A stretch of 18,628 nt of DNA from a virus (IMGVR_UViG_2731957842_000007:1-18628); one strand, 5' to 3'; counted from the stretch's first letter, positions 1,009 through 18,628 are shown. Notes: generated by a model not told the origin, from the sequence alone. Numbers and translations are program-made.

Positions 1009-1083
1009 GTCCTCTTAGTTAAATGGATATAACGAGCCCCTCCTAAGGGCTAATTGCAGGTTCGATTCCTGCAGGGGACACCA
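1009..1083 (+). tRNA. argW: tRNA-Arg (anticodon CCU), 75 nt with encoded CCA end
   Basis: Cloverleaf readable in sequence: acceptor stem GTCCTCT/AGGGGAC, anticodon loop CTCCTAA (anticodon CCT), T-arm GCAGG-TTCGATT-CCTGC, 3' CCA. An integrase gene follows 160 bp downstream. Confidence 0.9.
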
Positions 1084-1178
1084 TTTATCAGTTCGCTCTA
1101 ATCCGTATCAGTCCGCAAAATCCCCTGAATATCAAGCCTTCCGTAGATTCACAGTTCGTCATGGTTCGCGTCAGATCG

Positions 1179-1208
1179 TTGACAGCCGCACTCCATGACG
1201 GGTAAAAA
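1179..1208 (+). promoter_or_regulatory. Candidate integrase promoter: TTGACA (1179-1184), 18 bp spacer, TAAAAA (1203-1208)
   Basis: Perfect -35 consensus hexamer with an A/T-rich -10-like hexamer at suitable spacing, 37 bp upstream of the int ATG and within the expected attL arm. Confidence 0.3.
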
Positions 1209-2419: not shown

Positions 2420-4414
2420 TTATTCAGCCTTAGCAAAAGTGGTCATAGTTGTTCCACTGAAAGTGAATGACCTGTCTGTAAGAGTAACATCCTGAATAGC
2501 AAAGTAATCGCCAACACCAGCGCCATTTACATAAAACTCGAATATCTCAGATGTATTTTCCGGAATAATATTATTAGCAATATAACACGTAGATAAAGAA
2601 CCATTTGTTGATGGTAAAGTTCCAAATAGCGTTGCATCCGATGCAGCATATATCGAACTGCTTAAATAAATATTTATATCAACATTACTCTCATAAGTAA
2701 CAATTAAGTACACCCGGTCGTTAACCTTCCACCCTCTGTCTTTTATCTTAGTATTAAGTGATAGCTTGTTAGAACTAGGGGTCGTTACGGTATTAATGGT
2801 TATTTTTGCTCCTATTGAGTTGTATCTGCTTCTGGTTACTGTATTACCAGTATTGTTCATTGTATAAAGGATTGCTCTGCTTTCTGCAAACGTCCTCATA
2901 TTAATCTTGCCTAAACAATCTCCTTCCATAACTTGTGGGCCAGACACAGTTGCACCAATATAACAATTAGTAAATACAGCATGAGCCCTGTTGTCAGTGC
3001 TTGATGCAAGTAATGAAAGTTTAAAGTTGCCCTGATCTGCAATCCAGCAACTATCAACCTTAACTACAGCATCATTGTCAAGAACAACAAACCTTCCTCC
3101 CTCATTGTAATATCCTACAAAAGCATTTACACCGCTTATTTTTACTACTCCATCTGGAACCGTAAAGATATCGCCTTGTATCGCTTCGCCATAGTACCCG
3201 CCAACAATATTGGTCACTCTGGTATTTAAGTACATGCCATGCCCAATGCCGAACTCAAGGTCACATCCAATTAAGCTTAAACCTTCAATAGGGGAAGTAC
3301 CAGAAGCATAAAAGGCATATTCACCGACCTTATTTGATGCAAATCCACAGTTATTGAACGTTACGCGGTTGTTAGCCCCAGCAAGGTGAACTCCGCGATT
3401 TGGCGCAGGAACAAAAGAACAGCAATCATAGGTATTAAGCCAGTCGTTTATAGTATAGAAGTTCGCCACCACGCCATTGATGAAACGACAATTATGGGTT
3501 CTTCCTAGGTGAACATATTGAATTCGGCAAGCATAGTTGGCGATGTTGTTCCCATCAACTGTAACGTGAGAGATAGATGTGCTACGTCTTATAGAGTCAG
3601 TTTCGTAGTACATGTTGACAACTGTCTCTCCAGTGAACCCACTCCCCGCAATAATGAATGACTTCTCAACGCCATCCCCGAATAGGTCAACAGTGCCTAT
3701 TGTTAAATCAACTGGTGACTTAACATAGTAAGTTCCTGCAGGGACAAACAGCCTCTTTCCTGCCGATAAAGCAACTGCTGCAGCAGCATTAAAGCTAGCT
3801 GAGTTATCTGCCGCTGGATCACCAGTAATGGGGAAAAATTGAGCAACAGAAATATAATCTGCTACCGTCACTTCGTACCATGGCAAAGCAGGAGATGACG
3901 GAAGAGTGCCACTACCACCGGTGTAGATTTTATTATTATACCACCACCAGTTATCAACATTAGATAACACCCCCTCCTGCCACACCCCCCCTAACGAGAA
4001 ATCAAGACCGTAAGAAGTAGCTATCTGACTTAATGATAATGTTGCTCCTCTGTCAGAAGCTAATTCTTGCCTTAATTGGTCAGGGTCATACTTCAGCACA
4101 TTAGGAAAATAGAACTGCTGTGCACCATACGCATCATAAACAGCCATAGAATGGCCTTGCACAGTTACGAACTTGGCAATCTGTCCGTTATATACCGGAT
4201 ATCCAGCAGCGTTAATGATGATTGGTTGCGAAACAGGAACGTGAGAGCCGTCTTCGTTCTCCACATAAACCTGAATCTGGTTTTCAGGATTTACAGGGTC
4301 AGTGTCAATTTTACCGATATAAATTTTGCCATTGGCTACGGCTTTAAAAGAACGAGCCATAGTGAAGAGTTGCGAAGGCATGCTTACCACAACATTTGCG
4401 GTGATATCTGACAT
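2420..4414 (-). CDS. Tailspike protein: P22-like N-terminal head-binding domain fused to a divergent C-terminal receptor-binding domain (probable glycan depolymerase)
   Basis: N-terminus [60 protein letters not shown] matches the conserved head-binding domain of P22 gp9-type tailspikes; the remainder has no P22 gp9 similarity I can see. Start placed at ATG 4414 (GGAG 9 nt upstream) rather than the ORF-track start at 4462. Confidence 0.85.
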
Positions 4415-4439
4415 TTCATTGCTCCAGACGAATGATATG

Positions 4440-4462
4440 ATGCAACCATGATGTGGTTGCAT
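4440..4462. promoter_or_regulatory. Palindromic operator-like site ATGCAACCA-TGATG-TGGTTGCAT in the tailspike/mnt divergent intergenic region
   Basis: 9 bp inverted-repeat arms around a 5 bp spacer; overlaps a TTGCAT -35-like hexamer (4457-4462) oriented towards mnt. Fits a ribbon-helix-helix repressor operator. Confidence 0.45.
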
Positions 4463-4535
4463 ACCGAAATGGTACTATTGAGTATTTATCCAGTAGGTTA
4501 CGATGCCATTCCACCCAACTGGTGAGGCATCAAGG

Positions 4536-4802
4536 ATGTACAGCAAATACGACGAGGCGCAGTTTCACTTGAGACTTCCGCATGAACTCCACGCGAAAAT
4601 TAAACAGCGCGCGAAGATGAATAACAGGTCGCTGAACTCAGAGATAATTGCAGCGATTGAAGAATCATTGGCTAAACAAAGCTCTGCATCCGTTTACATT
4701 GACGATGCAGAGCGTATGGCAGAACAACAATCTGATATGGTTAAGAAAATGGTTTTTGAAACGCTTAAGACCATGTATAGCAATAATAAAAAGGAAACAT
4801 AG
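4536..4802 (+). CDS. mnt: Mnt-like ribbon-helix-helix (Arc/MetJ family) repressor, 88 aa
   Basis: FHLRLPHELHAKIKQRAKMNNRSLNSEIIAAIEESL is a ribbon-helix-helix N-terminal fold; C-terminal DAERMAEQQSDMVKKMVFETLK resembles the P22 Mnt C-terminus as I recall it. ATG at 4536 with GGTGAGG 8 nt upstream; ORF-track start 4503 rejected. Confidence 0.7.
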   Translation: MYSKYDEAQFHLRLPHELHAKIKQRAKMNNRSLNSEIIAAIEESLAKQSSASVYIDDAERMAEQQSDMVKKMVFETLKTMYSNNKKET

Positions 4803-4872
4803 AAATCTAGTTTCCGGCTAAAATGGCATTGCCTTCATGATATCCTGTGAAAAACTAAGGAGAGTTAACCAT

Positions 4873-5358
4873 ATGAAAAAATCACTGTTAATTATCCCGC
4901 TTCTGCTGGTTGGATGCGCAAAAGTAAGTGACTATCAAGCAAGTTGCGAACAACGCTATCAAAAGCTTAGCGATATGGCTAATTGCCTTGATGCCAGAGT
5001 GAAGAACGACTCACGCATGGCATCAGCACCAACACCTAAGCTATATGTCCTTGCTGCAAAGATGCTCGGGCAAGGTGTCGATGAAGGCAAGATAAGTGAC
5101 GCACAGGCAAGACTTGAGCTTCAGAATCTTTATGTTCAATTACAAAGCCAAGAACAAGCCCAACAAATAGCACAAAGCCAAGCATTCCAGCAGGCTTTAT
5201 TGAATTATCAGGCTGTAAACACAATGCAAGCGATCGAGCAAAAAGCGAGACAGCCTGTTATAACTCAACCCTATCCAACACGAGTTGACACTTACACAAA
5301 CTGCAATTCAGGATTTGGAAACACCGTCACATGCAACAGTAGCAGCAACATTAGATAA
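4873..5358 (+). CDS. Predicted lipoprotein with Gln-rich C-terminal region, 161 aa; candidate superinfection-exclusion or moron protein
   Basis: MKKSLLIIPLLLVGC has a signal peptide and lipobox (LVGC); strong RBS AAGGAG 10 nt upstream of ATG 4873; occupies the position where P22-like phages carry sieA/immI genes. Confidence 0.7.
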   Translation: MKKSLLIIPLLLVGCAKVSDYQASCEQRYQKLSDMANCLDARVKNDSRMASAPTPKLYVLAAKMLGQGVDEGKISDAQARLELQNLYVQLQSQEQAQQIAQSQAFQQALLNYQAVNTMQAIEQKARQPVITQPYPTRVDTYTNCNSGFGNTVTCNSSSNIR

Positions 5359-5360
5359 AG

Positions 5361-7475
5361 CTATTCATATTCATTCATACCGCTTAACGAGGCGACAATA
5401 CCAGCTCTCGACAAGCGATTGAATTCATCGCTACCAATAGCATCGCGTATTGCTTTTACGGCGGCTTTATTTGCCATAAATCGGCGTTCCGCCGCCGCTA
5501 ATGCTTCTTTACTTCCGCCAGCTCTTACTGCTTTCGTGGCTTCCTGAACTGCTTTCTCTATCGCATATCGGCCGCTACGAGTGGTGGCAATTTTAGATAC
5601 AGCACCTTTTAACCCGGCGCCAACTAAAGCACCTGCGGCAGCGCCTGCAATGCCACCTCCTGCTCCACCAACAATGGCACCTGATGTTGAGTTGGCAATT
5701 GCATTTAACACTGTTGATGTGATGTTGGATAAACCGGCATCCAGATCGCGTAGTACATTGGCAGTTCTCCCTGTTCTTTCAATATACTGCTGAGGTTTCA
5801 CTGCTGCTCTTGCAAGAGTGCCATATACATCAGCAATTCTTCCGAGTTCTGAGGAATATCTGCTAATGGCTTTTACATTTTGTGGGGTAAGTATCCCTGC
5901 GATATGGTTAATTCCTGCTGCATCAGCTTTGCCACCACGTACACCATGCGAGATAGCATCTTGCAACATTGATGATATAGCAGGAACACGCTCTGATTCT
6001 GGCAGCGCGCGGATCATAGAATGGAATCCAGCAGGACCATTAAGACCTTTAGCTGACGATGCTTGAAGAGATTTTACTCCATTCGTAATCAGTGCATCTG
6101 TTGCCAAATCACGCCCAAAAACAGACTCTGCACTCTCTTGTGCGGACAGCCTCGCTTTAGACAGATCATTAGCTTTTTGCCAGTCATCAAAAAATCCGCC
6201 GTTTTCCGCCATTGTGCGCATATCATCAGTAATTGCCCGACGTATTTCCCCTGCTCTCCTTGCCGCATTTGCCTCTCCGCTACGCTTATATTTTTGCTCC
6301 GCATCAGCAAATTTCGCTCTCCATGCTTTCATGCCATCAAATGTTACTCCACCTTGATTGTTTGCCTGAACAAACTGTTTCATTTCAGGAGTAAGCGGTA
6401 TGCCAGCAGATCGCTCTGCCTGAATAACGGCATTACCATTTAGCATTCTTGCTTTTTGATTTGGCATTGTTGACCGCACGTCATCCCATGCCGCGCGCTC
6501 GGCATCCTTCATCTGATCAAGATTTTGAAGAATCCTTTGTTTTATAGCCGCACTTTTTTCTGATGCCGTTCCAGATGCGGCCCCAAATTCATCAAGGTTT
6601 CGACTTAACTTTGATGATATTTCGTTAAATGCTGCCTGATGGGCGTCCTGAACAATTCCTGGTGTTGATGCCAATGCGCCTTCGGCTTGTGCAATTCCAC
6701 GACTTCCAGATCGCATTCCTGGTGTTAATGCGTTTATATCAATTCCAGCAGACTCAGCCGCTTTTGCTACATCTTCGGACACATTAGCGGCCTGACTGGC
6801 AATTGACTGACGCCCAGCACCTGACTTTGCCATCCTGGAAACATCATTAGCAGAATTCAGTGCTGCACCACCAAGAGCCTGTGAAACCCTTGGCGCAATA
6901 ACGCGCCCGACACCTGAAAGAACGCCTTGAGCACCAATATTGATACCACCGTTAATGGCAGCATTTTGTGCAAAATCACCCTCCTGATTTGCAGCATCAG
7001 CAAGAGAACCTGCAATCATGTTTCCTGCGGAACCGATATCTCCAGCGAGCTTTGCTGGCGCTCCAGCAGCTTTTGCCGCTGTGCCAATTGGCAGGAGATA
7101 CCCACCAATTGTTTCACCGGCTTGCGCATAAGGGTCTGTCGGTCGATCGACTGGACGATAGACATCATCCAAAACCTTGGGGCCACCAAGCCCCTGGCTG
7201 ATTGCATTAATCAGACTTGCGCCACCCTGCAATACGTCAAATGGTATGTTTACCAGACCACGGCCAGCCTGTTCTGCAATTTGCCCTGCGCTTTGACCAC
7301 CAGTGAGCCAGTCAGTGGCTTTTCCTACCAGAGATTGTTCTTCTGGCTGCGATTGGTTTTGAGTGGATTGATCACCAGAAGACAGCATCTGAGCAATGCG
7401 ACGTGCTCCCTCAGTATCGCCGGCAGCATCAGCATTCCTTAACGCCGTCATCAACTGTTCGCGACTATAGGCCAT
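5361..7475 (-). CDS. DNA ejection/transfer protein, P22 gp16-like, 704 aa
   Basis: Third gene of a 7-20-16-like ejection operon on the minus strand; Gly/Ala-rich; start overlaps the stop of the upstream gene. Confidence 0.65.
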
Positions 7476-8749
7476 TACTGCCCTCCGAGATATTTATTAA
7501 TCAGGTCATCATCAGAAAGCTGCTGTTGAGACGGTTGTATGTCCTTCCCGTATTTCTGTTGCATACGTTTCTGAGCCATCTCAGTGGTTTTTATGATTGT
7601 TTTGATGGCTGCTCTGGCTGATTTTTCAGACTGATTTGGGGACAAACTACCAATAGCATCCATTACCTTTTGCCCCTCGGCATTACTTAAAGCCCCCATC
7701 CCTTTCATCTGCTGAATGCCAGATAAGAATCCCTGAGATTTCAGTGTGTCAACCAGAGTTTCTGTATCAGCAGCCTCTGTTCCTGGAATGAATCTACTCG
7801 ATAGTGGGTTTAGGTTTGTTCCGAAATATCCAGTGAATCCCGGGCTATTAAGAACTTTTGTAGCCGTCTCTATCGTTCTGGAAAGATTATCCATTCCAGA
7901 GTTGTACGCATCAGCCTTATCTCGCTTTGCCTGCTCCATAGCTTGCTGATTCTGCAATCTCTTGTCCTGCAATTCAGCAAGTTTTAAGGCATTAGTTTCA
8001 TTTGCGATGAGTCTGTCGTATTTCTTGTCCTCTAATTCCATCCGACGAAGATTGACATTTTGTTGCGCAATATTGTTGCTTGCCCACCCTCTGGCATTTG
8101 TCATGTCATTATTACGGATTGTTTCGTTAATTTTTTGCTGATCCTGCTGGCGACCAACCATCTTATCCTGAACAGCAAACGCCTTTTCTGGTCCAAGCGC
8201 ACCGAGAGACATAGTAGTCAGCATGTGTGATAGCTGCTCTGGATTCTGGATACCTGTCTGAATCATCCAGTCAGCATTAGCACCAACGCGATTTAACCTG
8301 TCCTTGTTGTCAGTAATGAATTTGCTGTAGGCTTCCGGTCCCTGAGAAAGAGCGACGTTAGCCCTCATGGCTAAATCGCCCATATCGTTGCGTTGCTGAT
8401 CATTAAGACCGGAAAACGCCTGTTGTGCCTGTGCAACAAACGCTGGATTTTCCTGGGCAAACTTAAATAGTCCCGATGGATCACCAGAAGCCCATGCATC
8501 AGCATGAACCTTATTGAACGCATTAATCGCTTCCTGTTGCTGTTCCTGCTTATAAATATCAGCAACTCCAGCCAGACCACGTAACGCGGTCAGACCAACG
8601 TTATTTGCACCTGAGCGAGCCAGTTCATTGTTTTCGCGGATCAGACCAAGCGTTGCGTTAATGTCGCTTGCCTTTGGCGCATTCTCATTTTGCGTACCGA
8701 TGCCAGCCAGAAAACCACCAGAATTAATACCCTGTTGCCACGTAGCCAT
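7475..8749 (-). CDS. DNA ejection/transfer protein, P22 gp20-like, 424 aa
   Basis: Position between gp7-like and gp16-like genes; Gln-rich low-complexity segments typical of ejection proteins; GGGG RBS upstream of ATG at 8749. Confidence 0.65.
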
Positions 8750-8759
8750 TGATTACCCC

Positions 8760-9452
8760 TTAAAACAACGAGCCAAGCAGACCAAGACCGCCTCCGATCG
8801 CAGCCCCCCACGGAGTTGATGAACCAATTAATTTCGCAAGTCCGGCCCCAGCAATAGCACCAGACGCACCTCCGCCAATAGCAGATTGCATTGCTGATGG
8901 TCTGTTGGCATTTGCCGCTGCAAGAGCCGCACTTTGCTGCGAAATCTGACTCATGTTGTTGGCATATGTCTGCCCGGCGTTTGCCTGACCTTGCAGTGCG
9001 CCAAGACCAATGTTTGCCAGATTCTGGTAGTTGTTCATCTGACCAGACAGCCACTGCTGACCAAGCGTTGGTGCGATTGTTGCTAACTGATTACCGGTTG
9101 CAGTGGAACCCAATCCACCTGTTGCTTCCGCTGCCGCCAGACTCTGATAGCGAGCCTGACCAGCAAGATCTTTGTACTGCTGAGAGTTGTAATACTGGTT
9201 TAGCGCCTGACCTTGCCCATCCAGAGACGATAAGTTCTCGAGGCTGCCGACATACTTCTCAGCCAGAGGAGTAAACGGTTTCAGGTTGTTCATGATGGTG
9301 TTGAACTGCTGATTTTGCAGGTCTGCGGCATACTTCTGAGCTTCTGCTGCATACTTTGCGCTTTTATCAGAACTGCCACCTTTCCCGCCTTTTTCAGGGC
9401 AATAAGGTTCCTCGCCGCGCAGTTTTCTGCCCAGCTTAAATGCATATAACAT
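8760..9452 (-). CDS. DNA ejection protein, P22 gp7-like, 230 aa
   Basis: MLYAFKLGRKLRGEEPYCPEKGGKGGSSDKSAKYAAEAQKYAADLQNQQFNTIMNNLKPF closely matches the P22 gp7 N-terminus as I recall it; length matches gp7 (229 aa). Confidence 0.8.
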   Translation of the reverse strand: MLYAFKLGRKLRGEEPYCPEKGGKGGSSDKSAKYAAEAQKYAADLQNQQFNTIMNNLKPFTPLAEKYVGSLENLSSLDGQGQALNQYYNSQQYKDLAGQARYQSLAAAEATGGLGSTATGNQLATIAPTLGQQWLSGQMNNYQNLANIGLGALQGQANAGQTYANNMSQISQQSAALAAANANRPSAMQSAIGGGASGAIAGAGLAKLIGSSTPWGAAIGGGLGLLGSLF

Positions 9453-9454
9453 GG

Positions 9455-9913
9455 CTATCTCCCGTGATTCAGGAAGTCGATTAGTTCTTCGCGTGTGGCG
9501 CTGTAAAAAGTCACGTCATCCACGCCTTTAAAGTATTTCTTGATGGTTCCTACACGATTAAGGCCAATCATTGCGCAGTAAATCTGCCCGTGGCGGAATT
9601 TGCGTGCGGCGAACGATGTGACGCACTGAACGGTGGTGTTAGTCAGAATGTATCGCCAGAACGCCAGCCCGATTTCCTTGCTGAAGCCACGAACCTCTGG
9701 CAGGTACATGGCGTGGCAATCGAATGTCAGCGGCTGAATCTCCTGATAGTAAACAATGCCGCCAAACTGACCGTACACGTTAACCTCAAAGTAACGGCAT
9801 TCAGGCTTGTAGTCGTATCCATCACCGTTGTTGCTTCCGGCAATAATGTCAGGGTGATTTCCGACTGCTTCGATCAGGTCGATGTTTCGCGTTGGTTTGA
9901 ACTGAATCATCAC
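9455..9913 (-). CDS. P22 gp14-like protein, 152 aa
   Basis: [35 protein letters not shown] matches gp14 of P22-like phages; sits between the needle and gp7 genes as in P22. Confidence 0.7.
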
Positions 9914-10758
9914 TGCTCCGCGATTATCTTGATGGTTGTGGCAGTAAACGCCGCACCATTCGACTGAATGGTTAACGTGCTGCCATTTGTGGCAAGAAAG
10001 CCGTCTTTATCCACGCTGAAGAACGTAGCTAACAAGATGTTATCGGTTGTTGTCGCCGAGTTGCGACTGCTTACCAGTGTGTCAGGAACAGAGCCGGAAA
10101 AGGTTAGCTGCATTGACCTGTTTGCGGTTCCGCTGGGCCACGTCCCGACAATCGACAGCTTGAAGAACAGGGTTTTGTTCTCGTTGAACACAACCATCTT
10201 GTTGTTAACGGTGTCGAAGAATGGTGCCAACGAGCCGGATGACGGCGTGAGCGTTTTCAGCAGGCTAACAAGGTTGGTCGGCGCTGTCGGGATGGTTACT
10301 GATACGCCAGAGTAAACAACCTCTGACTTCTTGCGTGTGGTTGCATACTCCAGAGCATCAATGCGCGTTTCATGGTCTGAAACCTGCGACTCCAGCGACT
10401 GAAGTCTGGTATCAAGCGACGCAATATCGCTTTCATTCTGAGTGATTCGTGTTTCATGTTCCTGAAGAGTTGATTCTGCCTGACTGATTCGCTCCTCATG
10501 ATTAACAAGCGTTGCTTCCGCAGCAGAAATTCGCTGCTCATGGTCAGCGAGAATCACATCCTGCTCATCGTTCCTGACTTGTGCGTCATAAGCGCCCTGT
10601 CCGGCCTCGTTGGCCTTGTTAGCCACGTTACCAACATCAGTGCCCTGTGCGATAACGTAAAGCAGATACGACTGCGAGAAGATATTGCGTGGAAGGACTG
10701 ATGTGTCGAGCCGTGTAGCCTGAATGATTACCGGCACATTGAGATTCGAATCCGCCAT
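9910..10758 (-). CDS. Tail needle protein, P22 gp26-like, with a divergent C-terminal knob domain, 282 aa
   Basis: N-terminus [43 protein letters not shown] matches the conserved gp26 N-terminal domain; central heptad-like repeats ([43 protein letters not shown]) fit the trimeric coiled-coil needle; C-terminal 120 aa differ from P22. Confidence 0.8.
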
Positions 10759-11552
10759 TACTCAATCCTTATCTGAGCGCCAGACAGAGTGACAGGTGAC
10801 TTCGTGATAACGCGCAATTTGAAACCAATGTTTTTCCTGATGCGCCCTACTTTCTTCCACAAAACGCGTTTGTCGTAAACGAACGGTTCATTCTGCTCAA
10901 TCATCTGCTCACGCCCGTAATTGATGCCGTCAGTGGTTGCAGAGAGGAACAGGCGGTCGGCGTACTGAGCTACGCCAGTGGATGATTCCACCTCCAGATC
11001 GAAGCATCTGGCGTTATCCGCTTTGAACAGTGGAGTAAACAGCAGGTGTTCCTGTTGCTTGTCGTACTGGCTGCTGATATCGAACTGCAATTTCCCGGTC
11101 ACGGACTCCAGCTTATCGCCGCACGTTATCTGATTGCCTTCATAAATGAAGTCGATAGCGCGGTACACATCGTCATACAGGCCTGTTTTCAACACACACC
11201 ATTGCGGACCATTGGCGCTTGAAGATGCGTCGTACACGAGGACGTGGCGCGGAAGGTGGATAATCAGCAGTTCATGCGCATCAAATCGCAGCGATTCCAT
11301 CACACCATCAGCCAGTTCATCAGCAGTGTAGGAGCGAAGAATTTTCTCAATGCTCGCGCTGGCGATTGGTGATACCTGACCTGATCCGATGATGTATACA
11401 GACGGCGCACCCGTTGCCGGATTGCTGATAAACGCATACGAATCAGCGAATGGCGTTTTGCAGTAAGTTCCGGCAATGCCTTTCTGCACCATCAGCGATG
11501 GTTGTGCGACATACAAAGCGGCACCATCGGAGGTCAACATGACAGTAGTCAT
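10758..11552 (-). pseudogene. 5'-truncated gp10-like tail accessory gene (C-terminal 264 codons only), at the deletion junction
   Basis: Occupies the gp10 position upstream of gp26; P22 gp10 is about 470 aa but this ORF is 264 aa. The codon immediately upstream of its ATG (11553-11555 on the minus strand) is TAA, and its first codons are antisense to the start of the N-like gene. Confidence 0.6.
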
Positions 11553-11838
11553 TACATATCTGGCTGACGATAACGCCAGAAATCGCCGCAGAGCACGCAG
11601 ACAGGCTCAACGTGAACAGGCAATGCAAGAGCAGCGACTGGCGCGAAAAATTGCGCTAAAGCTCTCTGGTTGCGTCAGAGCAGATAAAGCAGCATCACTC
11701 GGAAGCCTTCGCTGCAAGAAGGCAGAAGAAGTCGAGCGTAAACAGAATCGTATTTACTACCGCAAGCCACGCAGTGAAATGGGTGTGACTTGCTCAGGCC
11801 GCCAGAAAATGAAATTAGGCAGCAAACCACTTATTTGA
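11539..11838 (+). CDS. N-like transcription antiterminator with an arginine-rich motif, 99 aa
   Basis: MTVVITYLADDNARNRRRARRQAQREQ resembles the N-terminal arginine-rich RNA-binding motifs of lambda N and P22 gp24 (which begins MTVITY). GGAGG 5 nt upstream of ATG 11539; first gene of the rightward operon. ORF-track start 11476 rejected. Confidence 0.55.
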   Translation: MTVVITYLADDNARNRRRARRQAQREQAMQEQRLARKIALKLSGCVRADKAASLGSLRCKKAEEVERKQNRIYYRKPRSEMGVTCSGRQKMKLGSKPLI

Positions 11839-11846
11839 GGTGAGAT

Positions 11847-12317
11847 ATGACAAAATCATGGAGCGTACCTTTTCCTGAATCAGAAACTGAACATGATGGA
11901 ATGCCTGTTTTCTGGAGATTCCAGGCGACAGTTGAAGAAGATGGGATAAAAATATTCGCACTTCAATATATAGCTTTTCATCAGACAGAGCATTATGCAT
12001 GGTTGGTTCCTGCGCATTGGATTGTTAATTTTAAACCAGCACCAAATCAGTGGTTACAGGAATGGAAACAAAGGAGAAATAGATATGCAATTAAGAAAGT
12101 AGCAAAAAATGCAGAAAGATCTTTTGCATTCCCAACGAAGAAACTTGCCATTGAGAGTTTATTGCGCCGGAAGAAATACCATTTAATGAGAATCAAACAA
12201 GATTTGGCTGTTGTATCAACTCTTGTTGATGGGATGAAGAATATTGATACATCAACACCAGATATTGAATATAACTTTGGACACAACCAAGAAACAGAAA
12301 ATTGGGTATTCTACTAG
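11847..12317 (+). CDS. Hypothetical protein, 156 aa, in a visibly A+T-rich segment; moron candidate
   Basis: RBS GAGGTGAG before ATG 11847; Trp- and Lys-rich soluble protein with no family I recognise; followed immediately by a terminator. Confidence 0.6.
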   Translation: MTKSWSVPFPESETEHDGMPVFWRFQATVEEDGIKIFALQYIAFHQTEHYAWLVPAHWIVNFKPAPNQWLQEWKQRRNRYAIKKVAKNAERSFAFPTKKLAIESLLRRKKYHLMRIKQDLAVVSTLVDGMKNIDTSTPDIEYNFGHNQETENWVFY

Positions 12318-12341
12318 GCCGCATAGTCGGCCTTTATTTTT
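12317..12341 (+). terminator. Rho-independent terminator after the 156 aa ORF
   Basis: Stem GGCCG (12317-12321), loop CATAGT, stem CGGCC (12328-12332), followed by TTTATTTTT. Confidence 0.6.
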
Positions 12342-12363
12342 GGCATAAACAACAGAGGCTAAC

Positions 12364-12660
12364 ATGGAATTTAAAGGTACTGAAGGTAAGTGGGAAATAA
12401 TGATGGATGGCGATGAGATTAAAATCATCCAGGCAGACTCACTTGAAAATGGCGCAGGCTGGCGTTCGTATATTGCAATCTGTGAGGAAGTTCAATGTAT
12501 TGAAGATGCCAATCTAATAGCGGCAGCACCTGACCTTCTCGAAGCACTTCAGTTATTACTTAAGCAATCCAAAAATAGAACAACGACAACATATCCAGAA
12601 TGGTATGGAGCTGTTAATAAAGGTCTTGCAGCAATCAGCAAGGCTCTGGGAGGTGAATGA
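12364..12660 (+). CDS. Hypothetical protein, 98 aa
   Basis: ORF with an AGAGG RBS-like element upstream; its stop overlaps the start of the next ORF (ATGA), indicating translational coupling. Confidence 0.5.
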   Translation: MEFKGTEGKWEIMMDGDEIKIIQADSLENGAGWRSYIAICEEVQCIEDANLIAAAPDLLEALQLLLKQSKNRTTTTYPEWYGAVNKGLAAISKALGGE

Positions 12661-12869
12661 TGTGCGAGTTTTATGAAGCAGATATCAAACGCCCAGAAAT
12701 GGCAAGTGATGCGACATTACGTGATTACTTCGCTGCTAAGGCTATGGCAGCAATAGTGCGCAGATGGGACGGACATTCCTTTGGCGGTGGACAGAATTCA
12801 CCACAGTACAAAGAATTAGCAGATGATGCCTACTTTATTGCTGATGCCATGCTCAAAGCTCGCGAATAA
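12657..12869 (+). CDS. Hypothetical protein, 70 aa, translationally coupled to the upstream 98 aa ORF
   Basis: ATGA start/stop overlap at 12657-12660; no recognisable family. Confidence 0.45.
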   Translation: MMCEFYEADIKRPEMASDATLRDYFAAKAMAAIVRRWDGHSFGGGQNSPQYKELADDAYFIADAMLKARE

Positions 12870-12964
12870 GCACTGTGTATTCATTCCAACGAGTGAATAC
12901 ACGGAGCAATGTCGCTCGTAACTAAACAGGAGCCGACTTGTTCTGATTATTGGAAATCTTCTTT

Positions 12965-12992
12965 GCCCTCCAGTGTGAGGGCAATTTTTTTT
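12965..12992 (+). terminator. Rho-independent terminator upstream of the coiled-coil gene
   Basis: Stem GCCCTC (12965-12970), loop CAGTGT, stem GAGGGC (12977-12982), followed by AATTTTTTTTT. Confidence 0.55.
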
Positions 12993-13004
12993 GATGGAGG
13001 ATAT

Positions 13005-13973
13005 ATGAGTGAAGTAACAGATTTAGTTGTTATTGAAAAAGCAAATGCAATGACTGTATTTCAGTCTGCCGACCAGATTGAAGAAATCCTTCAAAAGGTA
13101 GAACGTGAAGTTATGTCCTTTGTGCCTGATATCACAACGGCAAAGGGCAGAAAGGAGGTCGCTTCTCTGGCGTATAAAGTTGCGCAGACGAAAACATATC
13201 TCGATGGTCTTGGCAAAGACCTTGTTGCTGAACTGAAGGAAATTCCAAAGCTAATTGATGCCAACCGCAAGACAGTGCGCGATCGCCTTGATGAACTGAA
13301 AGCCAAGGCACGCCAGCCTCTTACTGATTATGAAGAGGAACAGGCGCGGATTAAAGCTGAAGAAGAAGCTAAGGCAGCAGCTGAAGCTCTCGCAAAGCAA
13401 ATTGAGTCTGACCATGAAATAGCGATTTTGATGGATCGCGAATTTGACCGCCAAAGAGAAGAGGCAAGACTCAAAGCGGAGCAGGAAAAGCGAGAGCATG
13501 AAGAACGCTTAAAAAGAGAAGCTGAAGAGAAAGCCAGAGCTGAAGCCGAAGCAAAGGCAAAAGCCGAAATTGAAGCAGCAGCAAGGCGAGAAGCAGAAGC
13601 TAAGGCCGCAGCGGAACGTGCAGAGCGTGAACGCATTGAAGCCGAGCAACGAGCACAGCGCGAAGCAAAAGAGGCAGCAGAACGAGCTGAAAGAGAAAAG
13701 CAGGCAGCAATTGAAGCAGAACGCAGAAAAGCACAGGAGGAGGCTGAACGAATCCGTCGCGAGGTTGAAGCAAAAGAGCAAGCCAGAATAGCAGAAGAAA
13801 AAAGAATCAAGGAAGAAGAAGAGCGTAGAGCAAAGGATAAAGCTCACCGGAAAGAAGTAAATAACAAAATACTTGCTGACCTTATCAAGGTTGGTGCATC
13901 AGAAGATGTTGCTAAAAATATCATAACAGCCATCGTAAAAGGCGAAGTATTCGCAACAAAAATAACCTACTAA
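13005..13973 (+). CDS. Hypothetical coiled-coil protein with a long Glu/Ala/Lys/Arg-rich repetitive central region, 322 aa
   Basis: ATG 13005 preceded by GGAGG; the ORF-track start 12909 lies upstream of the terminator and is rejected. Central 200 aa are AEAKA/EAERR-type repeats; globular N- and C-terminal segments. Confidence 0.6.
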   Translation: MSEVTDLVVIEKANAMTVFQSADQIEEILQKVEREVMSFVPDITTAKGRKEVASLAYKVAQTKTYLDGLGKDLVAELKEIPKLIDANRKTVRDRLDELKAKARQPLTDYEEEQARIKAEEEAKAAAEALAKQIESDHEIAILMDREFDRQREEARLKAEQEKREHEERLKREAEEKARAEAEAKAKAEIEAAARREAEAKAAAERAERERIEAEQRAQREAKEAAERAEREKQAAIEAERRKAQEEAERIRREVEAKEQARIAEEKRIKEEEERRAKDKAHRKEVNNKILADLIKVGASEDVAKNIITAIVKGEVFATKITY

Positions 13974-13997
13974 TAAAACCAACATAAGGAACCACCC

Positions 13998-14129
13998 ATG
14001 ATTTACGCAATCGCGGGAGGAGCTCGCATGGGTGCCTTCCAACTAAATGAATCTTTACTTGAACGAATCACCCGTAAATTACGTGACGGATGGAAAAGAG
14101 TTGAGGTCTTATTATGCGCAATGAAATAG
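13998..14129 (+). CDS. cIII-like small protein (FtsH protease inhibitor family), 43 aa
   Basis: MIYAIAGG...ESLLERITRKLRDGWKR matches the conserved core of lambda CIII as I recall it; AAGGA RBS upstream; located upstream of erf as in lambdoid PL operons. Confidence 0.5.
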   Translation: MIYAIAGGARMGAFQLNESLLERITRKLRDGWKRVEVLLCAMK

Positions 14130-14266
14130 CCATCAATCACCAGATGCTTCGTGCTGCACAGAACAAAGCAGTAATAGCCAGATTTATTGGTGATTCAAAA
14201 ATGTGGCTTGAAGCAAATAAAGCGATGAAATCAGCTATCAACCTTCCGTGGTATCGCAGGAAATGA
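14114..14266 (+). CDS. Kil-like small protein (putative), 50 aa
   Basis: IARFIGDSKMWLEANKAMK resembles the lambda Kil family from memory; start overlaps the cIII-like ORF, and its stop overlaps the next start. Confidence 0.35.
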   Translation: MRNEIAINHQMLRAAQNKAVIARFIGDSKMWLEANKAMKSAINLPWYRRK

Positions 14267-14421
14267 GTTTCACAGATAACTGGTCAGACGAAGAATTCAT
14301 TCGTCAGATGAAAGAATTAATCGGTAACGAAGGAGATATTCATGTCACTTGCAACCACAGTGAAGGAGAGCAAGTTACAGAGACGCATGTACACGCAGAA
14401 AGCTCTCTGGTATCGCCATAA
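14263..14421 (+). CDS. Hypothetical small protein, 52 aa
   Basis: Chained by ATGA overlap to the upstream small ORF and lying directly upstream of erf; no family recognised. Confidence 0.3.
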   Translation: MSFTDNWSDEEFIRQMKELIGNEGDIHVTCNHSEGEQVTETHVHAESSLVSP

Positions 14422-14522
14422 TGGTGACCGCGAAGGAATGCGGGTATGCCTTAATTTGTCCCGAGTCGAAGTATTAAATCAGCGTTATTTCCTTGGGCCG
14501 TGTCCATTCTGAGAACAATCAT

Positions 14523-15128
14523 ATGAGCAAAGAATTTTACGCAAGACTGGCAGCTATTCAGGAGAATCTGAACGCGCCAAAGAATCAGTACAACTCATTC
14601 GGCAAATATAAATACAGAAGCTGCGAAGATATTCTTGAAGGCGTTAAGCCGTTACTGAATGGTCTGTTTTTATCAATCAGCGATGAAGTTGTGTTGATTG
14701 GTGATCGGTATTACGTGAAAGCCACGGCAACTATTACCGATGGCGAAAACAGTCATACGGCAACTGCTCTTGCACGAGAGGAAGAAAGCAAGAAAGGAAT
14801 GGATTCTGCACAAGTTACTGGAGCTACAAGCTCTTATGCGCGCAAGTATTGCCTCAATGGTTTGTTCGGCATTGATGATGCGAAAGATGCAGATACCGAC
14901 GAACATAAACATCAGCAGAACGCAGCAGCAAAGCAATCAAAACCATCACCTACACCTGAACAGGTTCTAAAAGCATTCACTGACGCAGCAATGCAAAAAA
15001 ACACCGTGGAAGAGCTTAAACAGGCGTTCGCCAAAGCGTGGAAGATGCTCGAAGGAACACCGGAGCAGCACAAAGCGCAGGACGTTTACAACATCAGACG
15101 AGACGAATTAGAAGGAGCTGCTGCTTAA
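14523..15128 (+). CDS. erf: Erf-family single-strand annealing recombinase, 201 aa
   Basis: MSKEFYARLAAIQENLNAPKNQYNSFGKYKYRSCEDILEGVKPLLNGLFLSISDEVVLIGDRYYVKATATITDGENSHTA matches P22 Erf as I recall it. ORF-track TTG start at 14493 rejected in favour of ATG 14523. Confidence 0.85.
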   Translation: MSKEFYARLAAIQENLNAPKNQYNSFGKYKYRSCEDILEGVKPLLNGLFLSISDEVVLIGDRYYVKATATITDGENSHTATALAREEESKKGMDSAQVTGATSSYARKYCLNGLFGIDDAKDADTDEHKHQQNAAAKQSKPSPTPEQVLKAFTDAAMQKNTVEELKQAFAKAWKMLEGTPEQHKAQDVYNIRRDELEGAAA

Positions 15129-15511
15129 TGGCACATTCGATTACTGTAAGACTAAACAAGCCCGCAAGAGAGTTTCAGGCCGGGGAAAATATCGGATTCA
15201 ACATCCGTGCTGGCGTTCAGTATTACGATCGCCAGACAAAAAAGAAAGAATGGACAAACTACAGCGCCGTTGTATTTGCCAAGCCGGGAGCGCAAGCGGA
15301 TTACTACCGTAGTGTTCTTGTTGAAGGTGGCATTGTGGAAATTACCGGAGAAAACATCAGGGTTGATGTTTATCAGGGGCAAAATGGTCAATCAATCACT
15401 CTTGAATTACTGAATGCAAAGATTGGATTTGCAACTTCAGGAAACAGCCAACAGCAGCAAAGTAGCAATCATCAAAATCATCCTGAATACGACGATTCAA
15501 TCCCCTTCTAG
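15128..15511 (+). CDS. SSB-like single-stranded DNA-binding protein with an acidic C-terminal ...DDSIPF tail, 127 aa
   Basis: ATG overlaps the erf stop (TAATG); the C-terminus EYDDSIPF matches the conserved SSB tail motif (DDDIPF); the N-terminal region is compatible with an OB fold. ORF-track start 15038 rejected. Confidence 0.6.
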   Translation: MAHSITVRLNKPAREFQAGENIGFNIRAGVQYYDRQTKKKEWTNYSAVVFAKPGAQADYYRSVLVEGGIVEITGENIRVDVYQGQNGQSITLELLNAKIGFATSGNSQQQQSSNHQNHPEYDDSIPF

Positions 15512-15534
15512 ATTAGCAAAATAAGGATTCCATT

Positions 15535-15828
15535 ATGCCAGCGCCTCTGTATGGTGCGGATGACCCGCGCCGCTGTTCCGGCAATTCCGTATCGGAGGTG
15601 CTGGATAAATTCAGGAAAAACTACGACCTGATAATGTCTCTACCGCAGGAAACGAAAGAGGAAAAGGAATTTCGCCATTGTATATGGCTTGCAGAGAAAG
15701 AAGAACGCGAGCGAATTTACCAGACATCAATCCGCCCATTCCGCAAAGCCACATATACCCACTTCCCTGAAATTGACCCGCGCCTGCGTAATTACCGCTC
15801 ACGCTATGGCGCTATCAGTAATGACTGA
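15535..15828 (+). CDS. Hypothetical protein, 97 aa
   Basis: ORF with an AAGGA RBS-like element upstream of ATG 15535; no family recognised. Confidence 0.45.
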
Positions 15829-15838
15829 GGAATTTACC

Positions 15839-16003
15839 ATGAGAGGACTTGCATACAATCCCGGCATTCTTCCGGCAGAAATGATTATTCGCCAACGCGT
15901 AAAGCCAATGCCATCGAGAGAGGAATTGCTTAAGAGAAATTCTTTTCCATCAGTGAATCAAAACAAATATCTGAATGCGATGTTGCGGAGTGGGAAGAAA
16001 TGA
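15839..16003 (+). CDS. Hypothetical small protein, 54 aa (alternative start at 15821)
   Basis: GAGG 8 nt upstream of ATG 15839; its stop overlaps the next start (ATGA at 16000-16003). The 5' part of the ORF-track ORF 15689..16003 overlaps the upstream gene and is rejected. Confidence 0.3.
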
Positions 16004-16476
16004 AACAAATGTCACTAATTGAGATGGATGGATTCCTGAAAGGTAAATGCATCCCCCGAGATTTAAAGGTTAACGAAACAAACGCTGAATATCTGGTGCG
16101 TAAATTTGCTGAAGCGGAGGCCAAGTGCGCGGAGATGGCAGCGGAAAATGCGGGGCTGAAGTCTGGCGCTATGGACGAAATCAAGGTTATCAACCGTGGA
16201 GGGCAGGCATATTGCGTAAAAGATGGAGTGCAAGTTAATCCCATATATGCAAGAGGGTGGAATGATTATCGCGCAAAGTCTATGCAATCAGACACCCCAG
16301 CCACCGATGCTTTCCTGGCTGAAGTCAGGGCTAAGGCGTTTGATGACCTTTGCGCGGCGTTCGTTAAGCACGCGTCGGTGTCCGGGCTGGACGATGGCGA
16401 CTGCGTTACGGTGAAAGAGGCGACTGACGCCCTGCTGCATTGTGCGGAACAGCTTCACAAGGGAGTGCATTCATGA
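16000..16476 (+). CDS. Hypothetical protein, 158 aa
   Basis: Translationally coupled on both sides (ATGA overlaps at 16000 and 16473); no family recognised. Confidence 0.5.
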
Positions 16477-16706
16477 GCAACCTACTACCATGTCCATTCT
16501 GTGGCGGTGCAGCGCACGTTGCCAGCGAAGCAGATCACCCTGAATATGGCTCTGGCGGTCGATTCTATTTCGTTCGATGCGGTACGTGTCGCGCTCAATC
16601 TGGTAGCAAATATGCAGCGCCTGGAAATGACTGCGCGATTTTTTATTCAGAGGTTAGAGCAGAGTGGAATCAACGAGCAAAGGAGGCGAACAGTGAGCAA
16701 GATTGA
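16473..16706 (+). CDS. Lar-family restriction alleviation-like protein, 77 aa
   Basis: [12 protein letters not shown]...CGTC contains the CPFCG-type Cys motif characteristic of Lar-family small proteins; ATG overlaps the upstream stop. ORF-track start 16440 rejected. Confidence 0.5.
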   Translation: MSNLLPCPFCGGAAHVASEADHPEYGSGGRFYFVRCGTCRAQSGSKYAAPGNDCAIFYSEVRAEWNQRAKEANSEQD

Positions 16707-17268
16707 CTATCAGGCACTGCGTGAGGCGGCGCAGAACGCGAAAGATTTAGGTGGGATTAAGAATTACAAGCGAGGCGAGCAAGCTGTTGCCGAATTTGAG
16801 TCCCTGATAACGCCACACATTGTGCTGGCACTGCTGGATGAACGGGAAAGAAACCAGCAATACATCAAACGCCGCGACCAGGAGAACGAGGATATTGCGC
16901 TAACGGTGGGGAAACTGCGTGTTGAGCTGGAAGCCGCAGAGAAGCGCAACGCAAAATTACAAAGCGAGAATGCATACATCCGCAACCGGTACAAAGAACT
17001 GGACCTGTTAATCGGGAAAAACATTCTGGTCATGCAGGCTGCGATTATCGAATGGCAGGCAACTGGCGACGCTAAGAGCGGACTGGCATGGATTTATAAC
17101 ACACTGTTTGGCCCTGGCGAATTGCCGGACGAATCTGAGAAAGATGCTCAGGCCTACTTTAATCGCAAATATGCACCGATTGACGAAAAGCTTATGGAGC
17201 TTCACAAGTGGTTTTGGGAACAAAGTGAAGCCGAGCGCGCCGCCGGCATTCGCATCAAAGGAGAGTGA
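16693..17268 (+). CDS. Hypothetical coiled-coil protein (possibly Ead/Ea22-like), 191 aa, GTG start
   Basis: AGGAGG 6 nt upstream of GTG 16693; the ORF-track start at 16501 would overlap the Lar-like gene for 200 bp and is rejected. Confidence 0.5.
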   Translation: MSKIDYQALREAAQNAKDLGGIKNYKRGEQAVAEFESLITPHIVLALLDERERNQQYIKRRDQENEDIALTVGKLRVELEAAEKRNAKLQSENAYIRNRYKELDLLIGKNILVMQAAIIEWQATGDAKSGLAWIYNTLFGPGELPDESEKDAQAYFNRKYAPIDEKLMELHKWFWEQSEAERAAGIRIKGE

Positions 17269-17269
17269 T

Positions 17270-17920
17270 ATGAGCACTATCACTAAAGAACGTATCGAAT
17301 TGTTCATTAAATCCCCGCTTGAAAACGGACTTACTCGTGGCGAACAAATGGAACTGGCACGAATTGCACTGGCATCACTGGAACGCGAACTGATTCGCCA
17401 CGAGCATGCCAAATGGTCTGACTCCACATTTGGCTGCGTTGGCCCTATTGGTCCGCTGAAACATCTCTCAAAAGAGGCACTGGAAGCCGCAGCCGAACCA
17501 GACGATCTTAGCGAGTGGGCTGATATGCAGTTTCTGTTGTGGGATGCACAGCGCCGTGCTGGCATCAGCGATGCTGAAATTACCGCTGCTATGGAAGATA
17601 AATTGAAGATCAACATGGAGCGCCAGTGGCCTGAGCCAAAAGATGGTGAGCCTCGCTTGCACATTAAAGAACCCGGCAACTATCCGGTAACTCCGGATGG
17701 TTGGATAAGCTGTAGTGAGCGAATGCCTGAAAAGAATCGGAACGTGCTTATTTCGGTGAATTTCGATAGCTCTCTGGTTGAACCGCTAATATGCTCCGCA
17801 CGCTATACCGGAAGCACCTTTCGGCGCGGAGATGCAACGATTAAGCCGGGTAATGGTATTGAGCAAGCAACTCACTGGATGCCGCTACCGGAACCGCCGC
17901 AGGAGGTAAACCGTGGCTAA
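17270..17920 (+). CDS. DUF551-like phage protein, 216 aa
   Basis: AAAGGAGAG RBS, ATG 2 nt after the upstream stop; C-terminus ...PDGWISCSERMPE...THWMPLPEPP resembles the DUF551 signature. ORF-track start 17108 rejected. Confidence 0.55.
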   Translation: MSTITKERIELFIKSPLENGLTRGEQMELARIALASLERELIRHEHAKWSDSTFGCVGPIGPLKHLSKEALEAAAEPDDLSEWADMQFLLWDAQRRAGISDAEITAAMEDKLKINMERQWPEPKDGEPRLHIKEPGNYPVTPDGWISCSERMPEKNRNVLISVNFDSSLVEPLICSARYTGSTFRRGDATIKPGNGIEQATHWMPLPEPPQEVNRG

Positions 17921-17982
17921 CCTGCAACTTGCCGTCAAAGGTGAATAACAATCCTCGCACTCGCGGGGATTTCTTTTATCTG

Positions 17983-18007
17983 AACTCGCTACGGCGAGTT
18001 TTGTTTT
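17983..18007 (+). terminator. Rho-independent terminator
   Basis: Stem AACTCGC (17983-17989), loop TACG, stem GCGAGTT (17994-18000), followed by TTGTTTT. Confidence 0.55.
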
Positions 18008-18019
18008 ATGGAGATGATT

Positions 18020-18319
18020 ATGGCCTGTTCAACATTCAACCCTCTAACGTTACAGAAATACCAGACAGACCCTGAAGATTTATGCTCACTGTGTGGCGGA
18101 AATCATGGCAAAGCCGCCATGATCGAATGTAAGGACAAAATCCACATATGCCTTAATTGCGTTGATGTCCTCGTTGATATCAAAAATGAAAGAGAAGATA
18201 AAAAGCGTAGCGAGGCTATTCGCGCCTTAGATTCATGGATGCGAGATGGGTATAGTGCTGCGCAAATTTATGACTTCGCAATATCAAAAGGCGAAATACC
18301 AGGAGTGCGCATCGAATAA
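18020..18319 (+). CDS. Hypothetical Cys-rich (CxxC...CxxC, putative zinc-binding) small protein, 99 aa
   Basis: GGAG 6 nt upstream of ATG 18020 (alternative in-frame ATGs at 18008 and 18014); motifs CSLCGG and CLNC. Confidence 0.45.
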   Translation: MACSTFNPLTLQKYQTDPEDLCSLCGGNHGKAAMIECKDKIHICLNCVDVLVDIKNEREDKKRSEAIRALDSWMRDGYSAAQIYDFAISKGEIPGVRIE

Positions 18320-18361
18320 GACGTAACCAATATTCGAATTGAAGAACTGAAAGAACACCAA

Positions 18362-18383
18362 GCCGCCTGATGGCGGTTTTTTA
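18362..18383 (+). terminator. Rho-independent terminator upstream of the excisionase gene
   Basis: Stem GCCGCC (18362-18367), loop TGAT, stem GGCGGT (18372-18377), followed by TTTTTTATT. Confidence 0.6.
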
Positions 18384-18392
18384 TTGCCTGAT

Positions 18393-18408
18393 TTGCAGGT
18401 TCGATTCC
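18393..18408 (+). repeat. 16 bp exact copy of the argW T-arm segment (TTGCAGGTTCGATTCC; identical to 1054-1069)
   Basis: Exact 16/16 direct repeat of tRNA positions 1054-1069; the flanks diverge and the T-stem cannot form, so it is a fragment, not a tRNA. Confidence 0.5.
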
Positions 18409-18427
18409 CTATTCGGAGATAGCACTC

Positions 18428-18628
18428 ATGCAACACGAACTACAGCCTGATTCACTGGTTGATTTGAAATTCATCATGGCCGATACTGGCTTCGGTAAAA
18501 CCTTCATCTATGACCGGATTAAGTCCGGCGACCTGCCAAAAGCCAAAGTTATCCACGGGCGAGCAAGATGGTTATATCGTGACCATTGTGAATTCAAAAA
18601 TAAGCTCTTAAGCCGCGCCAATGGGTAA
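18428..18628 (+). CDS. torI: Excisionase / TorI-like recombination directionality factor, 66 aa
   Basis: 66 aa ORF MQHELQPDSLVDLKFIMADTGFGKTFIYDRIKSGDLPKAKVIHGRARW..., recognised as the KplE1 TorI/Xis family; last gene of the rightward operon, at the prophage end opposite int. Confidence 0.75.
   Translation: MQHELQPDSLVDLKFIMADTGFGKTFIYDRIKSGDLPKAKVIHGRARWLYRDHCEFKNKLLSRANG

Follow-up and report, generated by a model that had tools for sequence, protein, structure and literature searches.

The copy of a 16-bp tRNA segment that precedes the torI excisionase gene in the window (the whole analysed stretch of 18,628 nucleotides, IMGVR_UViG_2731957842_000007) is a conserved element carried by phages and not a prophage end. 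Sequence comparison shows it to be the form that a conserved cis element takes in E. coli; this element lies in the 5′ leader of xis and belongs to argW-integrating modules with the order xis, attP, int. Judged by its phylogenetic footprint, the element is functional and under purifying selection, and it probably helps to control excisionase production. The reading put forward here, to which a probability of roughly 0.5 is given, is that an orphan half-site of attB has been kept as a candidate operator for IntS and/or TorI, restraining expression of the RDF gene torI. Use as an excision-control site, which the original prediction had named among several alternatives, is now the favoured direction.

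The repeat and its setting in the window

The sequence TTGCAGGTTCGATTCC is present exactly twice in the whole window, on the same strand, once within argW and once ahead of torI (Table 1), and the identity of the two copies that had been noticed at first sight was thus borne out. No third match was found in the window even when up to two mismatches were allowed, and dinucleotide shuffles expect 0.01. A chance origin of the exact copy is ruled out by these shuffles and by the conservation across genera described below. The only tRNA gene called by ARAGORN in the window is argW, in which the first copy corresponds to the left (B) arm of attB and attL and abuts the crossover region.

The 16-mer as such is a common T-arm sequence. 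The first 120 IMG/VR stretches contained it 121 times: 69 of these occurrences lay in tRNAs of many specificities called by ARAGORN, 33 in torI leaders and 19 elsewhere; all but four of these 19 continued with TGC or TGT as in a T-stem, and two were argW copies cut at the end of a locus. From these classes of occurrence it follows that the torI leader is the only recurrent context of the 16-mer outside of tRNAs.

The second copy had been placed immediately after a terminator and 20 bp before the torI start codon. The terminator is indeed found there, whereas the gap to the ATG is 19 nt (18409–18427). The 66-amino-acid open reading frame that follows is 100% identical to TorI, HkaC and Sf6 gp18. 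The terminator represents a mosaic boundary common to phages with unrelated int/xis modules, and the sequence of phage 933W diverges right past the T-run. A segment of about 78 nt (18319–18396), made up of the end of the gene-19-like open reading frame, the terminator and TTATTGC, was seen with 92–98% identity in many E. coli genomes and also in the Stx phages 933W and H19J, the int/xis modules of which are unrelated, and is a mosaic boundary module.

What remains of the prophage is about 17.6 kb long, defective and P22-like (Lederbergvirus-type; window positions 2420–18628). Its minus strand carries tailspike and ejection-protein genes and ends in an N-terminally truncated head-closure gene (10758–11552), which matches only profile positions 214–470 of 486; at a junction near 11552–11850 this part is joined to early-left genes of the plus strand, among them Erf-like and Ea22-like ones. 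Head, lysis, replication and immunity/cII genes were not seen in the prophage part of the window, and the immunity/cII region appears to be missing altogether. Upstream of argW, an open reading frame of 310 amino acids runs from the first base of the window (1–933), which is presumably yfdC according to the K-12 map.

Table 1. Positions of the features of the attachment region and the torI leader in the window
Feature	Position	Strand	Basis or remark
argW, tRNA-Arg(CCT), bacterial attachment target	1009–1083	+	ARAGORN; sequence
First 16-mer copy: 5′ T-stem, T-loop and first two 3′ T-stem bases of argW	1054–1069	+	
attL core CTGCAGGGGACACCAT, true att identity block	1069–1084	+	Sequence; published KplE1 core; HK620/Sf6 features
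Likely overlap TGCAGGG, 7 bp	1070–1076	+	Inferred from the attP inverted repeat GATGTC/GACACC
attL P′ arm with five TorI sites	1085–1184	+	Sequence compared with published description (PMC2951348)
TorI sites: GTTCG, GTCCG, GTTCG, GTTCG, GATCG	1091–1095, 1111–1115, 1154–1158, 1164–1168, 1174–1178	+	
intS -35 box TTGACA	1179–1184	+	Follows the five TorI sites
intS integrase, 385 amino acids	1245–2402	+	Transcribed away from attL
Intrinsic terminator, hairpin and T-run (stem 18360–18379)	18360–18385	+	Closes upstream gene-19-like unit
TTGC-N5-TTGC, predicted cII site of PI promoter	18384–18396	+	HK620/Sf6 GenBank features
Second 16-mer copy	18393–18408	+	Sequence
13-mer AGGTTCGATTCCC	18397–18409	+	Includes the core GTTCGATTCC
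Core GTTCGATTCC of xis-leader element	18399–18408	+	Nine-sequence alignment; 62-leader survey
torI Shine-Dalgarno GGAGA	18415–18419	+	Sequence; GGAG conserved in alignments
torI (xis/RDF), 66 amino acids	18428–18628	+	Window ends at stop codon

Attachment core and empty site

The attachment core of KplE1 has been published as CTGCAGGGGACACCAT (PMC2951348), and the same 16-mer is marked 'attP core' in the GenBank records of HK620 and Sf6, where it lies between xis and int. In the window it forms the attL core, which overlaps the argW copy of TTGCAGGTTCGATTCC by one base. The right-hand counterpart was found in strain FT130, which is 99.6% identical to the window over 18100–18628: a second CTGCAGGGGACACCAT begins 75 nt past the torI stop codon and is followed by dsdC. 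The original prediction, that 18393–18408 is not the true attR and that the latter lies beyond the window, therefore held, and the look past position 18628 that it had called for located this second core copy.

To rebuild the empty site, the argW flank in the window was joined to the dsdC flank in FT130. E. coli genomes such as ATCC 8739 contain the rebuilt argW/dsdC junction uninterrupted and with 100% identity, and 937 E. coli genomes cover no less than 80% of it in a single piece. From this empty-site comparison, which had likewise been proposed as a check, the chromosome resumes past the core downstream of torI and not past 18408, with torI lying in between. The layout of the window is thus the known one, attL-intS at one end and torI-attR at the other, and the P arm and the attR core lie beyond the window end.

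Conservation of the element in phages and prophages

The same 16-mer is present in the free phage genomes of HK620, Sf6, Kapi1, IME10 and others, about 294 bp upstream of the attP core in HK620 and Sf6, and ahead of torI in the KplE1 prophage of K-12/MC4100. Because the copy occurs in free phage genomes, it cannot have been left behind in this strain by a tandem or earlier integration, and the suggestion of such a fossil was not supported, as phages themselves, K-12 KplE1 and diverged relatives in many genera carry the copy.

For a survey of leaders, 165 xis loci were pooled and gave 62 distinct leaders, the lineages of which are related by descent, so that the following counts do not stand for independent events. 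The core GTTCGATTCC, with no or one mismatch, started 28–29 nt, usually 29 nt, before the ATG in 44 of the 62 leaders and further upstream in two; these 46 leaders include some whose xis proteins are only 39–67% identical to TorI. The other 16, in which it was missing, either overlap the upstream gene or have a deletion, for example in Dryocola. The diversity of leaders came from a genome scan and a motif-anchored scan; a scan of IMG/VR with a TorI alignment returned only 100%-identical E. coli copies.

Lineages with the core were found in E. coli, Salmonella, Citrobacter, Serratia, Pantoea, Erwinia and Edwardsiella, with diverging flanks, and prophages in Enterobacter, Citrobacter, Serratia, Pantoea and Edwardsiella as well as in one unplaced MAG carry the element. 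An alignment of nine sequences from nine genera showed GGTTCGATT-C to be invariant and the most conserved block amid scrambled non-coding DNA, conserved more strongly than the coding region. All ten bases of the core are invariant across lineages in which the xis proteins are 39–88% identical, whereas the non-coding bases next to it are scrambled. Core mutants within E. coli were seen only as singletons, while the flanks show common polymorphisms.

Individual phages illustrate this pattern. In Erwinia phage Midgardsormr38, the Xis of which is 88% identical, the element is present as two tandem copies 16 bp apart; Erwinia phage phiEt88 (Xis 39% identical) has one. In Salmonella phages Emek and g341c (Xis about 50% identical), AAGTTCGATTCCC stands ahead of the real ATG. 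The duplication in Midgardsormr38 reads AGGTTCGATTCC CGTC AGGTTCGATTCC, has a period of 16 bp and immediately precedes the xis Shine-Dalgarno sequence (locus L127, 1957–1984). For xis of Emek and g341c, the annotated start is a GTG that lies 60 nt ahead of the ATG aligned with that of TorI (loci L130 and L131, 1935–2198); with this start, which has probably been mis-called, the annotated frame swallows the leader element and the Shine-Dalgarno sequence. A part of the yfdT-torI intergenic region of K-12 (MC4100), CTCACACTCGATGAGGCCTGT...TTTCTnAAnATATCC, is shared with the region upstream of Emek xis (L368, 330–370; L130, 1910–1955). Compared with Emek, K-12 has about 47 extra bases, including a T-run and the TTAC box, inserted just ahead of the conserved element.

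Every xis homologue found belongs to a module that targets an argW-type tRNA-Arg(CCT). More distant relatives of the integrase (Pseudomonas phi297, BR228a and VW-6S, Yersinia YeP6 and Acinetobacter 5W) have other layouts or no xis leader. No extra copy of the element or complementary partner beyond chance expectation was found in the modules and in the whole Sf6 genome.

Correspondence to the B arm of attB

TGCAGGG is flanked in attP by an imperfect inverted repeat, GATGTC ... GACACC, for which reason it is the likely 7-bp overlap. The sequence GGTTCGATTCC at 18398–18408 equals 1059–1069, which adjoins TGCAGGG. The conserved leader block is therefore exactly the 10–11 bp to the left of the overlap in attB, that is, the B arm on the side of the argW T-loop. 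In nearly all lineages the match of the leader to the tRNA stops at ...CC, the boundary between B arm and overlap, and the 'overlap' bases past the leader element are not conserved. The left flank retains partial tRNA matches, CAG or TTxCAG, and TTGCAG in E. coli.

In most relatives, the left core arm of attP reads TTCGATGTA followed by TGCAGGG, compared with TTCGATTCC followed by TGCAGGG in attB. As both left arms share TTCGAT, these bases are plausibly part of what Int recognises in a half-site. Tyrosine recombinases normally require paired inverted half-sites. Across a 7-bp overlap from the leader element, GAGATA matches the right arm GACACC at only three of six positions, and since a paired inverted half-site is thus missing, the element is an orphan. 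Moreover, the B arm GATTCC matches the apparent core consensus GRTGTC less well than the C arm of the phage does. Binding by the integrase would account for the length of the block and for both of its boundaries, but the site would be an orphan and a weaker, attB-type arm. Where the tRNA match ends, the expected cleavage position is reached, and as to the origin of the element it may be speculated that an ancient Int-made junction, or extended attP homology that was later split, would have left it there.

At no fewer than 15 loci (L127–L153), belonging to many genera, the xis ATG stands at a distance of exactly 275 nt from the TGCAGGG overlap; the value is 298 nt in the Emek type and 295 nt in phiEt88. 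This constancy implies a rigid geometry of the P arm that includes the xis coding sequence. In the commonest type, the end of the leader half-site lies 294 bp from the C arm, or about 28 helical turns.

Proposed role in the control of torI

IntS and TorI have been reported to repress PintS through att sites (PMC2951348), and this repression at attL is a precedent that supports reading the leader element as an operator. The core-binding/catalytic domain of IntS, which must recognise the same sequence in attB, would bind the leader half-site, and TorI, with or instead of IntS, would bind through the GTTCG pentamer. Such binding would limit torI expression and tie the excision switch to the levels of Int and RDF. 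In E. coli phages, the element is flanked by a putative cII box on one side and, on the other, by the -10 region of the PI promoter predicted there; occupancy would also shut this promoter. An accessory, negative role fits with the fact that leaders devoid of the element keep an intact xis, as in Dryocola, where the element was lost by deletion. Points that speak against an operator are the orphan state of the half-site, the single pentamer and the absence of the element from about a quarter of the leaders.

The contribution of TorI can be judged against its known sites. Those of attL were defined experimentally by GTTCG, GATCG and GTCCG, and the arm sites of IntS by TAAA; TorI sites are organised in cooperative arrays with gaps of 2 or 12 nt, that is, with a phasing of about 10 or 20 bp (PMC2951348). 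The leader contains a GTTCG pentamer at 18399–18403, inside the core GTTCGATTCC, but it is single and not part of a cooperative array, a weak look-alike (ATTCG) starting 11 nt further downstream. The two copies in Midgardsormr38 lie 16 bp apart and not at a spacing of 10 or 20 bp as in TorI arrays. TorI sites tolerate variation, which the leader element does not, and its conserved ATTCC part has no counterpart in sites I1–I5. In phiEt88, the P′-arm repeats are of the GTWAC type and were taken as its RDF sites, yet AGGTTCGATTCCC is kept. TorI binding alone is insufficient as an explanation, since it accounts neither for the invariance of ATTCC nor for the missing array nor for the perfect copy of the element that phiEt88 has. 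The argument from phiEt88 is weakened, however, because its leader and first codons look chimeric.

This chimeric appearance concerns the phiEt88 leader and about the first seven codons of xis (MQNDNHP), which are TorI-like (L132, 1970–2025, compared with L360–L365), whereas the closer relatives of this xis (57–72% identical) start with MELRD... and are devoid of the leader element. The P′-arm repeats of phiEt88, GATGTAACC and GCGTTACCC, as well as its arm-type repeats GCGGGCATA, differ from those of KplE1. With regard to argW itself, the GTTCG of the T-loop (1060–1064) is 31 bp from TorI site I1, which is 20 bp from I2. These spacings are close to whole helical turns, and the T-loop in attL or attB could be an unrecognised TorI contact.

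A related idea is rather doubtful: the element might act as a decoy of the attB half-site, a mimic of the T-loop, by which the integrase, or a host factor that binds T-loops and acts on the mRNA, would sense and throttle RDF production.

Alternative explanations

An unlikely explanation, although one with a basis in existing annotation, is that the 16-mer in the torI leader is part of a PI promoter of the lambda type activated by cII, its identity with the tRNA being incidental. In this scheme, TTGC-N5-TTGC would serve as the activator site and TATTCG as the -10, with the T-arm-like bases forming the spacer; transcription would begin past the torI Shine-Dalgarno sequence and give Int without Xis during lysogenisation. 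The second TTGC of the cII-like box is also the first four nucleotides of the 16-mer. The record of HK620 has a 'promoter - phage integration' with a 'cII protein' site TTGCCTGATTTGC at the torI leader, and that of Sf6 describes the same leader as 'pI; possible integrase expression promoter', annotations that speak in favour of a promoter. So does the finding that in H19J and in an E. coli prophage next to torS, which have a lambda-type xis, the same terminator is followed at the same position by TTGCGTGTAATTGC (TTGC-N6-TTGC), which we take to be the lambda PI sequence. The box has the location of a lambda-type PI, just upstream of or overlapping the xis start and downstream of the early-left terminator, its second TTGC lies 13 nt from the -10-like hexamer as in HK620 pRE, and no constitutive sigma-70-like promoter was detected in the torI leader, as expected if the promoter depends on an activator.

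The details of the box fit less well. Its spacing is N5, compared with N6 in HK620 pRE, in the TTGC-N6-TTGC/T direct repeat that flanks the -35 region in promoters of the lambda type and in the lambda/P22 cII consensus (PMC2629481), and in K-12 and many other loci the first TTGC is TTAC. Leaders from Erwinia, Salmonella, Edwardsiella and Pantoea have no TTGC repeat and still keep GTTCGATTCC perfectly. Since other genera keep the core without the box, a cII box cannot explain what is conserved; one would not expect the strongest conservation to fall on a spacer, and an exact match of 16 nt to the phage's own target tRNA is very unlikely to arise by chance.

Quite improbable is an action at the level of the mRNA, in which the T-loop look-alike GUUCGAUUCC, located 7 nt upstream of the Shine-Dalgarno sequence, would modulate torI translation, either by pairing with the Shine-Dalgarno region (UUCG or UUCC with CGGAG) or by binding of a host factor that recognises T-loops. 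The nearly fixed distance to the Shine-Dalgarno sequence and the ATG across lineages would suit such a role, as would the strict keeping of the tRNA version of the sequence, which fits T-loop mimicry. The one recurrent substitution, C to T at the equivalent of tRNA position 61, preserves a possible G53-Y61 pair, and in the predicted fold of the window leader UUCGA pairs weakly with UCGGA, overlapping the Shine-Dalgarno sequence. However, RNAalifold predicted no consensus pairs among 10 leaders, the 3′ half of the T-stem is missing and any of G, A and T can stand at the position equivalent to G52. Possible helices have 4–5 bp with wobble pairs and show no compensatory changes, and the z-score of the window fold is -1.8, a value that includes the terminator. 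A tRNA gene or tRNA-like RNA at 18393 is ruled out: ARAGORN finds only argW, no Rfam tRNA match was obtained at 18200–18628 with E ≤ 10, and neither tRNA nor any other Rfam family matched above threshold. Hits to STnc420 and isrK (plus strand) and to STnc130 (minus strand, 18351–18478) were all below threshold.

An inert fossil, be it the left arm of an ancient Int-mediated junction or a decayed, formerly longer identity block of attP and tRNA, is very improbable. Such an origin would explain why the tRNA match ends exactly at the expected position of top-strand cleavage and why different lineages show different extra matches in the flanks (E. coli has TTGCA on the left, Serratia and Pantoea have TG on the right), and some leaders did lose the element while xis was kept. 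Against inertness stand the ten invariant bases, as neutral decay would have erased the element like the neighbouring 'overlap' bases, and the restriction of E. coli core mutants to singletons.

A working attachment site, whether as the real attR or as a secondary core used by Int for recombination, is the reading that the 16 nt shared with the target tRNA and the closeness to the prophage end would first suggest, but it can be dismissed: past 18408 the sequence continues as CTATTCGGAG and not as TGCAGGGG, so that CTGCAGGGGACACCAT and the TGCAGGG overlap are missing and the flanks continue neither as tRNA nor as chromosome, and it is ruled out by the location of the true core, by the empty site, in which the chromosome resumes downstream of torI, and by the copies in unintegrated phage genomes.

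Significance

The transcription of int is uncoupled from that of xis in KplE1, HK620 and Sf6-type phages, and the excision switch has been concluded to depend on torI expression; PtorI has been called 'non-characterized', RDF expression has been named the key control point, and work on the control of the RDF gene has been called for (PMC2951348). The leader element is the most conserved non-coding feature of the torI control region and thereby offers a concrete lead on how excision is gated. It is present in the laboratory model, KplE1 of K-12/MC4100, and the module's own proteins are expected to recognise its sequence. The element was not found mentioned in the searchable literature, and a full-text search with GGTTCGATTCC gave nothing on phages among the matches listed.

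If the doubtful reading of a decoy of the attB half-site is true, a look-alike of attB would be part of the switch between lysogeny and excision. Should this principle hold generally, the half-site of the respective target would be expected before xis in modules that are directed at other tRNAs. In addition, a possible annotation trap is corrected, in which a tRNA-like repeat near a prophage end is mistaken for an att site.

Comparison with known systems

The B-O-B′ site of lambda Int is the paradigm for the core-type arms of heterobivalent tyrosine integrases. In the KplE1 IntS/argW system, the leader element is identical to the 10–11 bp that abut the crossover region on the tRNA side of attB and ends exactly at this boundary, and it shares TTCGAT with the left arm of attP in relatives. 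It differs in that it is isolated, with neither an overlap nor a convincing inverted partner, no recombination takes place there, and its place is the leader of the RDF gene, at a distance of about 294 bp from the real core.

With the TorI sites I1–I5 of KplE1 (Panis et al. 2010, PMC2951348), the leader has in common the GTTCG pentamer and the location in a control region of a recombination gene in the same module. In contrast to these sites, it is single, extended by ATTCC, far less variable and also kept in phiEt88.

The resemblance to lambda PI consists in the same position of the box relative to the upstream terminator and xis and in a predicted start past the xis Shine-Dalgarno sequence, which would give Int without Xis. 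The leader departs from it in the N5 spacing, in a first box that is often TTAC, in the lack of a box in other genera and in the conservation of what would be the spacer.

Finally, displaced 3′ fragments of tRNAs and tRNA-derived repeats at the ends of elements integrated into tRNA genes were reportedly described by Reiter et al. in 1989 and Williams in 2002. Such fragments run from the crossover to the tRNA's 3′ end and mark junctions. The leader element is likewise a piece of the target tRNA gene within an integrated element, but it represents the opposite (5′-side) arm, does not contain the 3′ end, is present in the free phage and is under selection.
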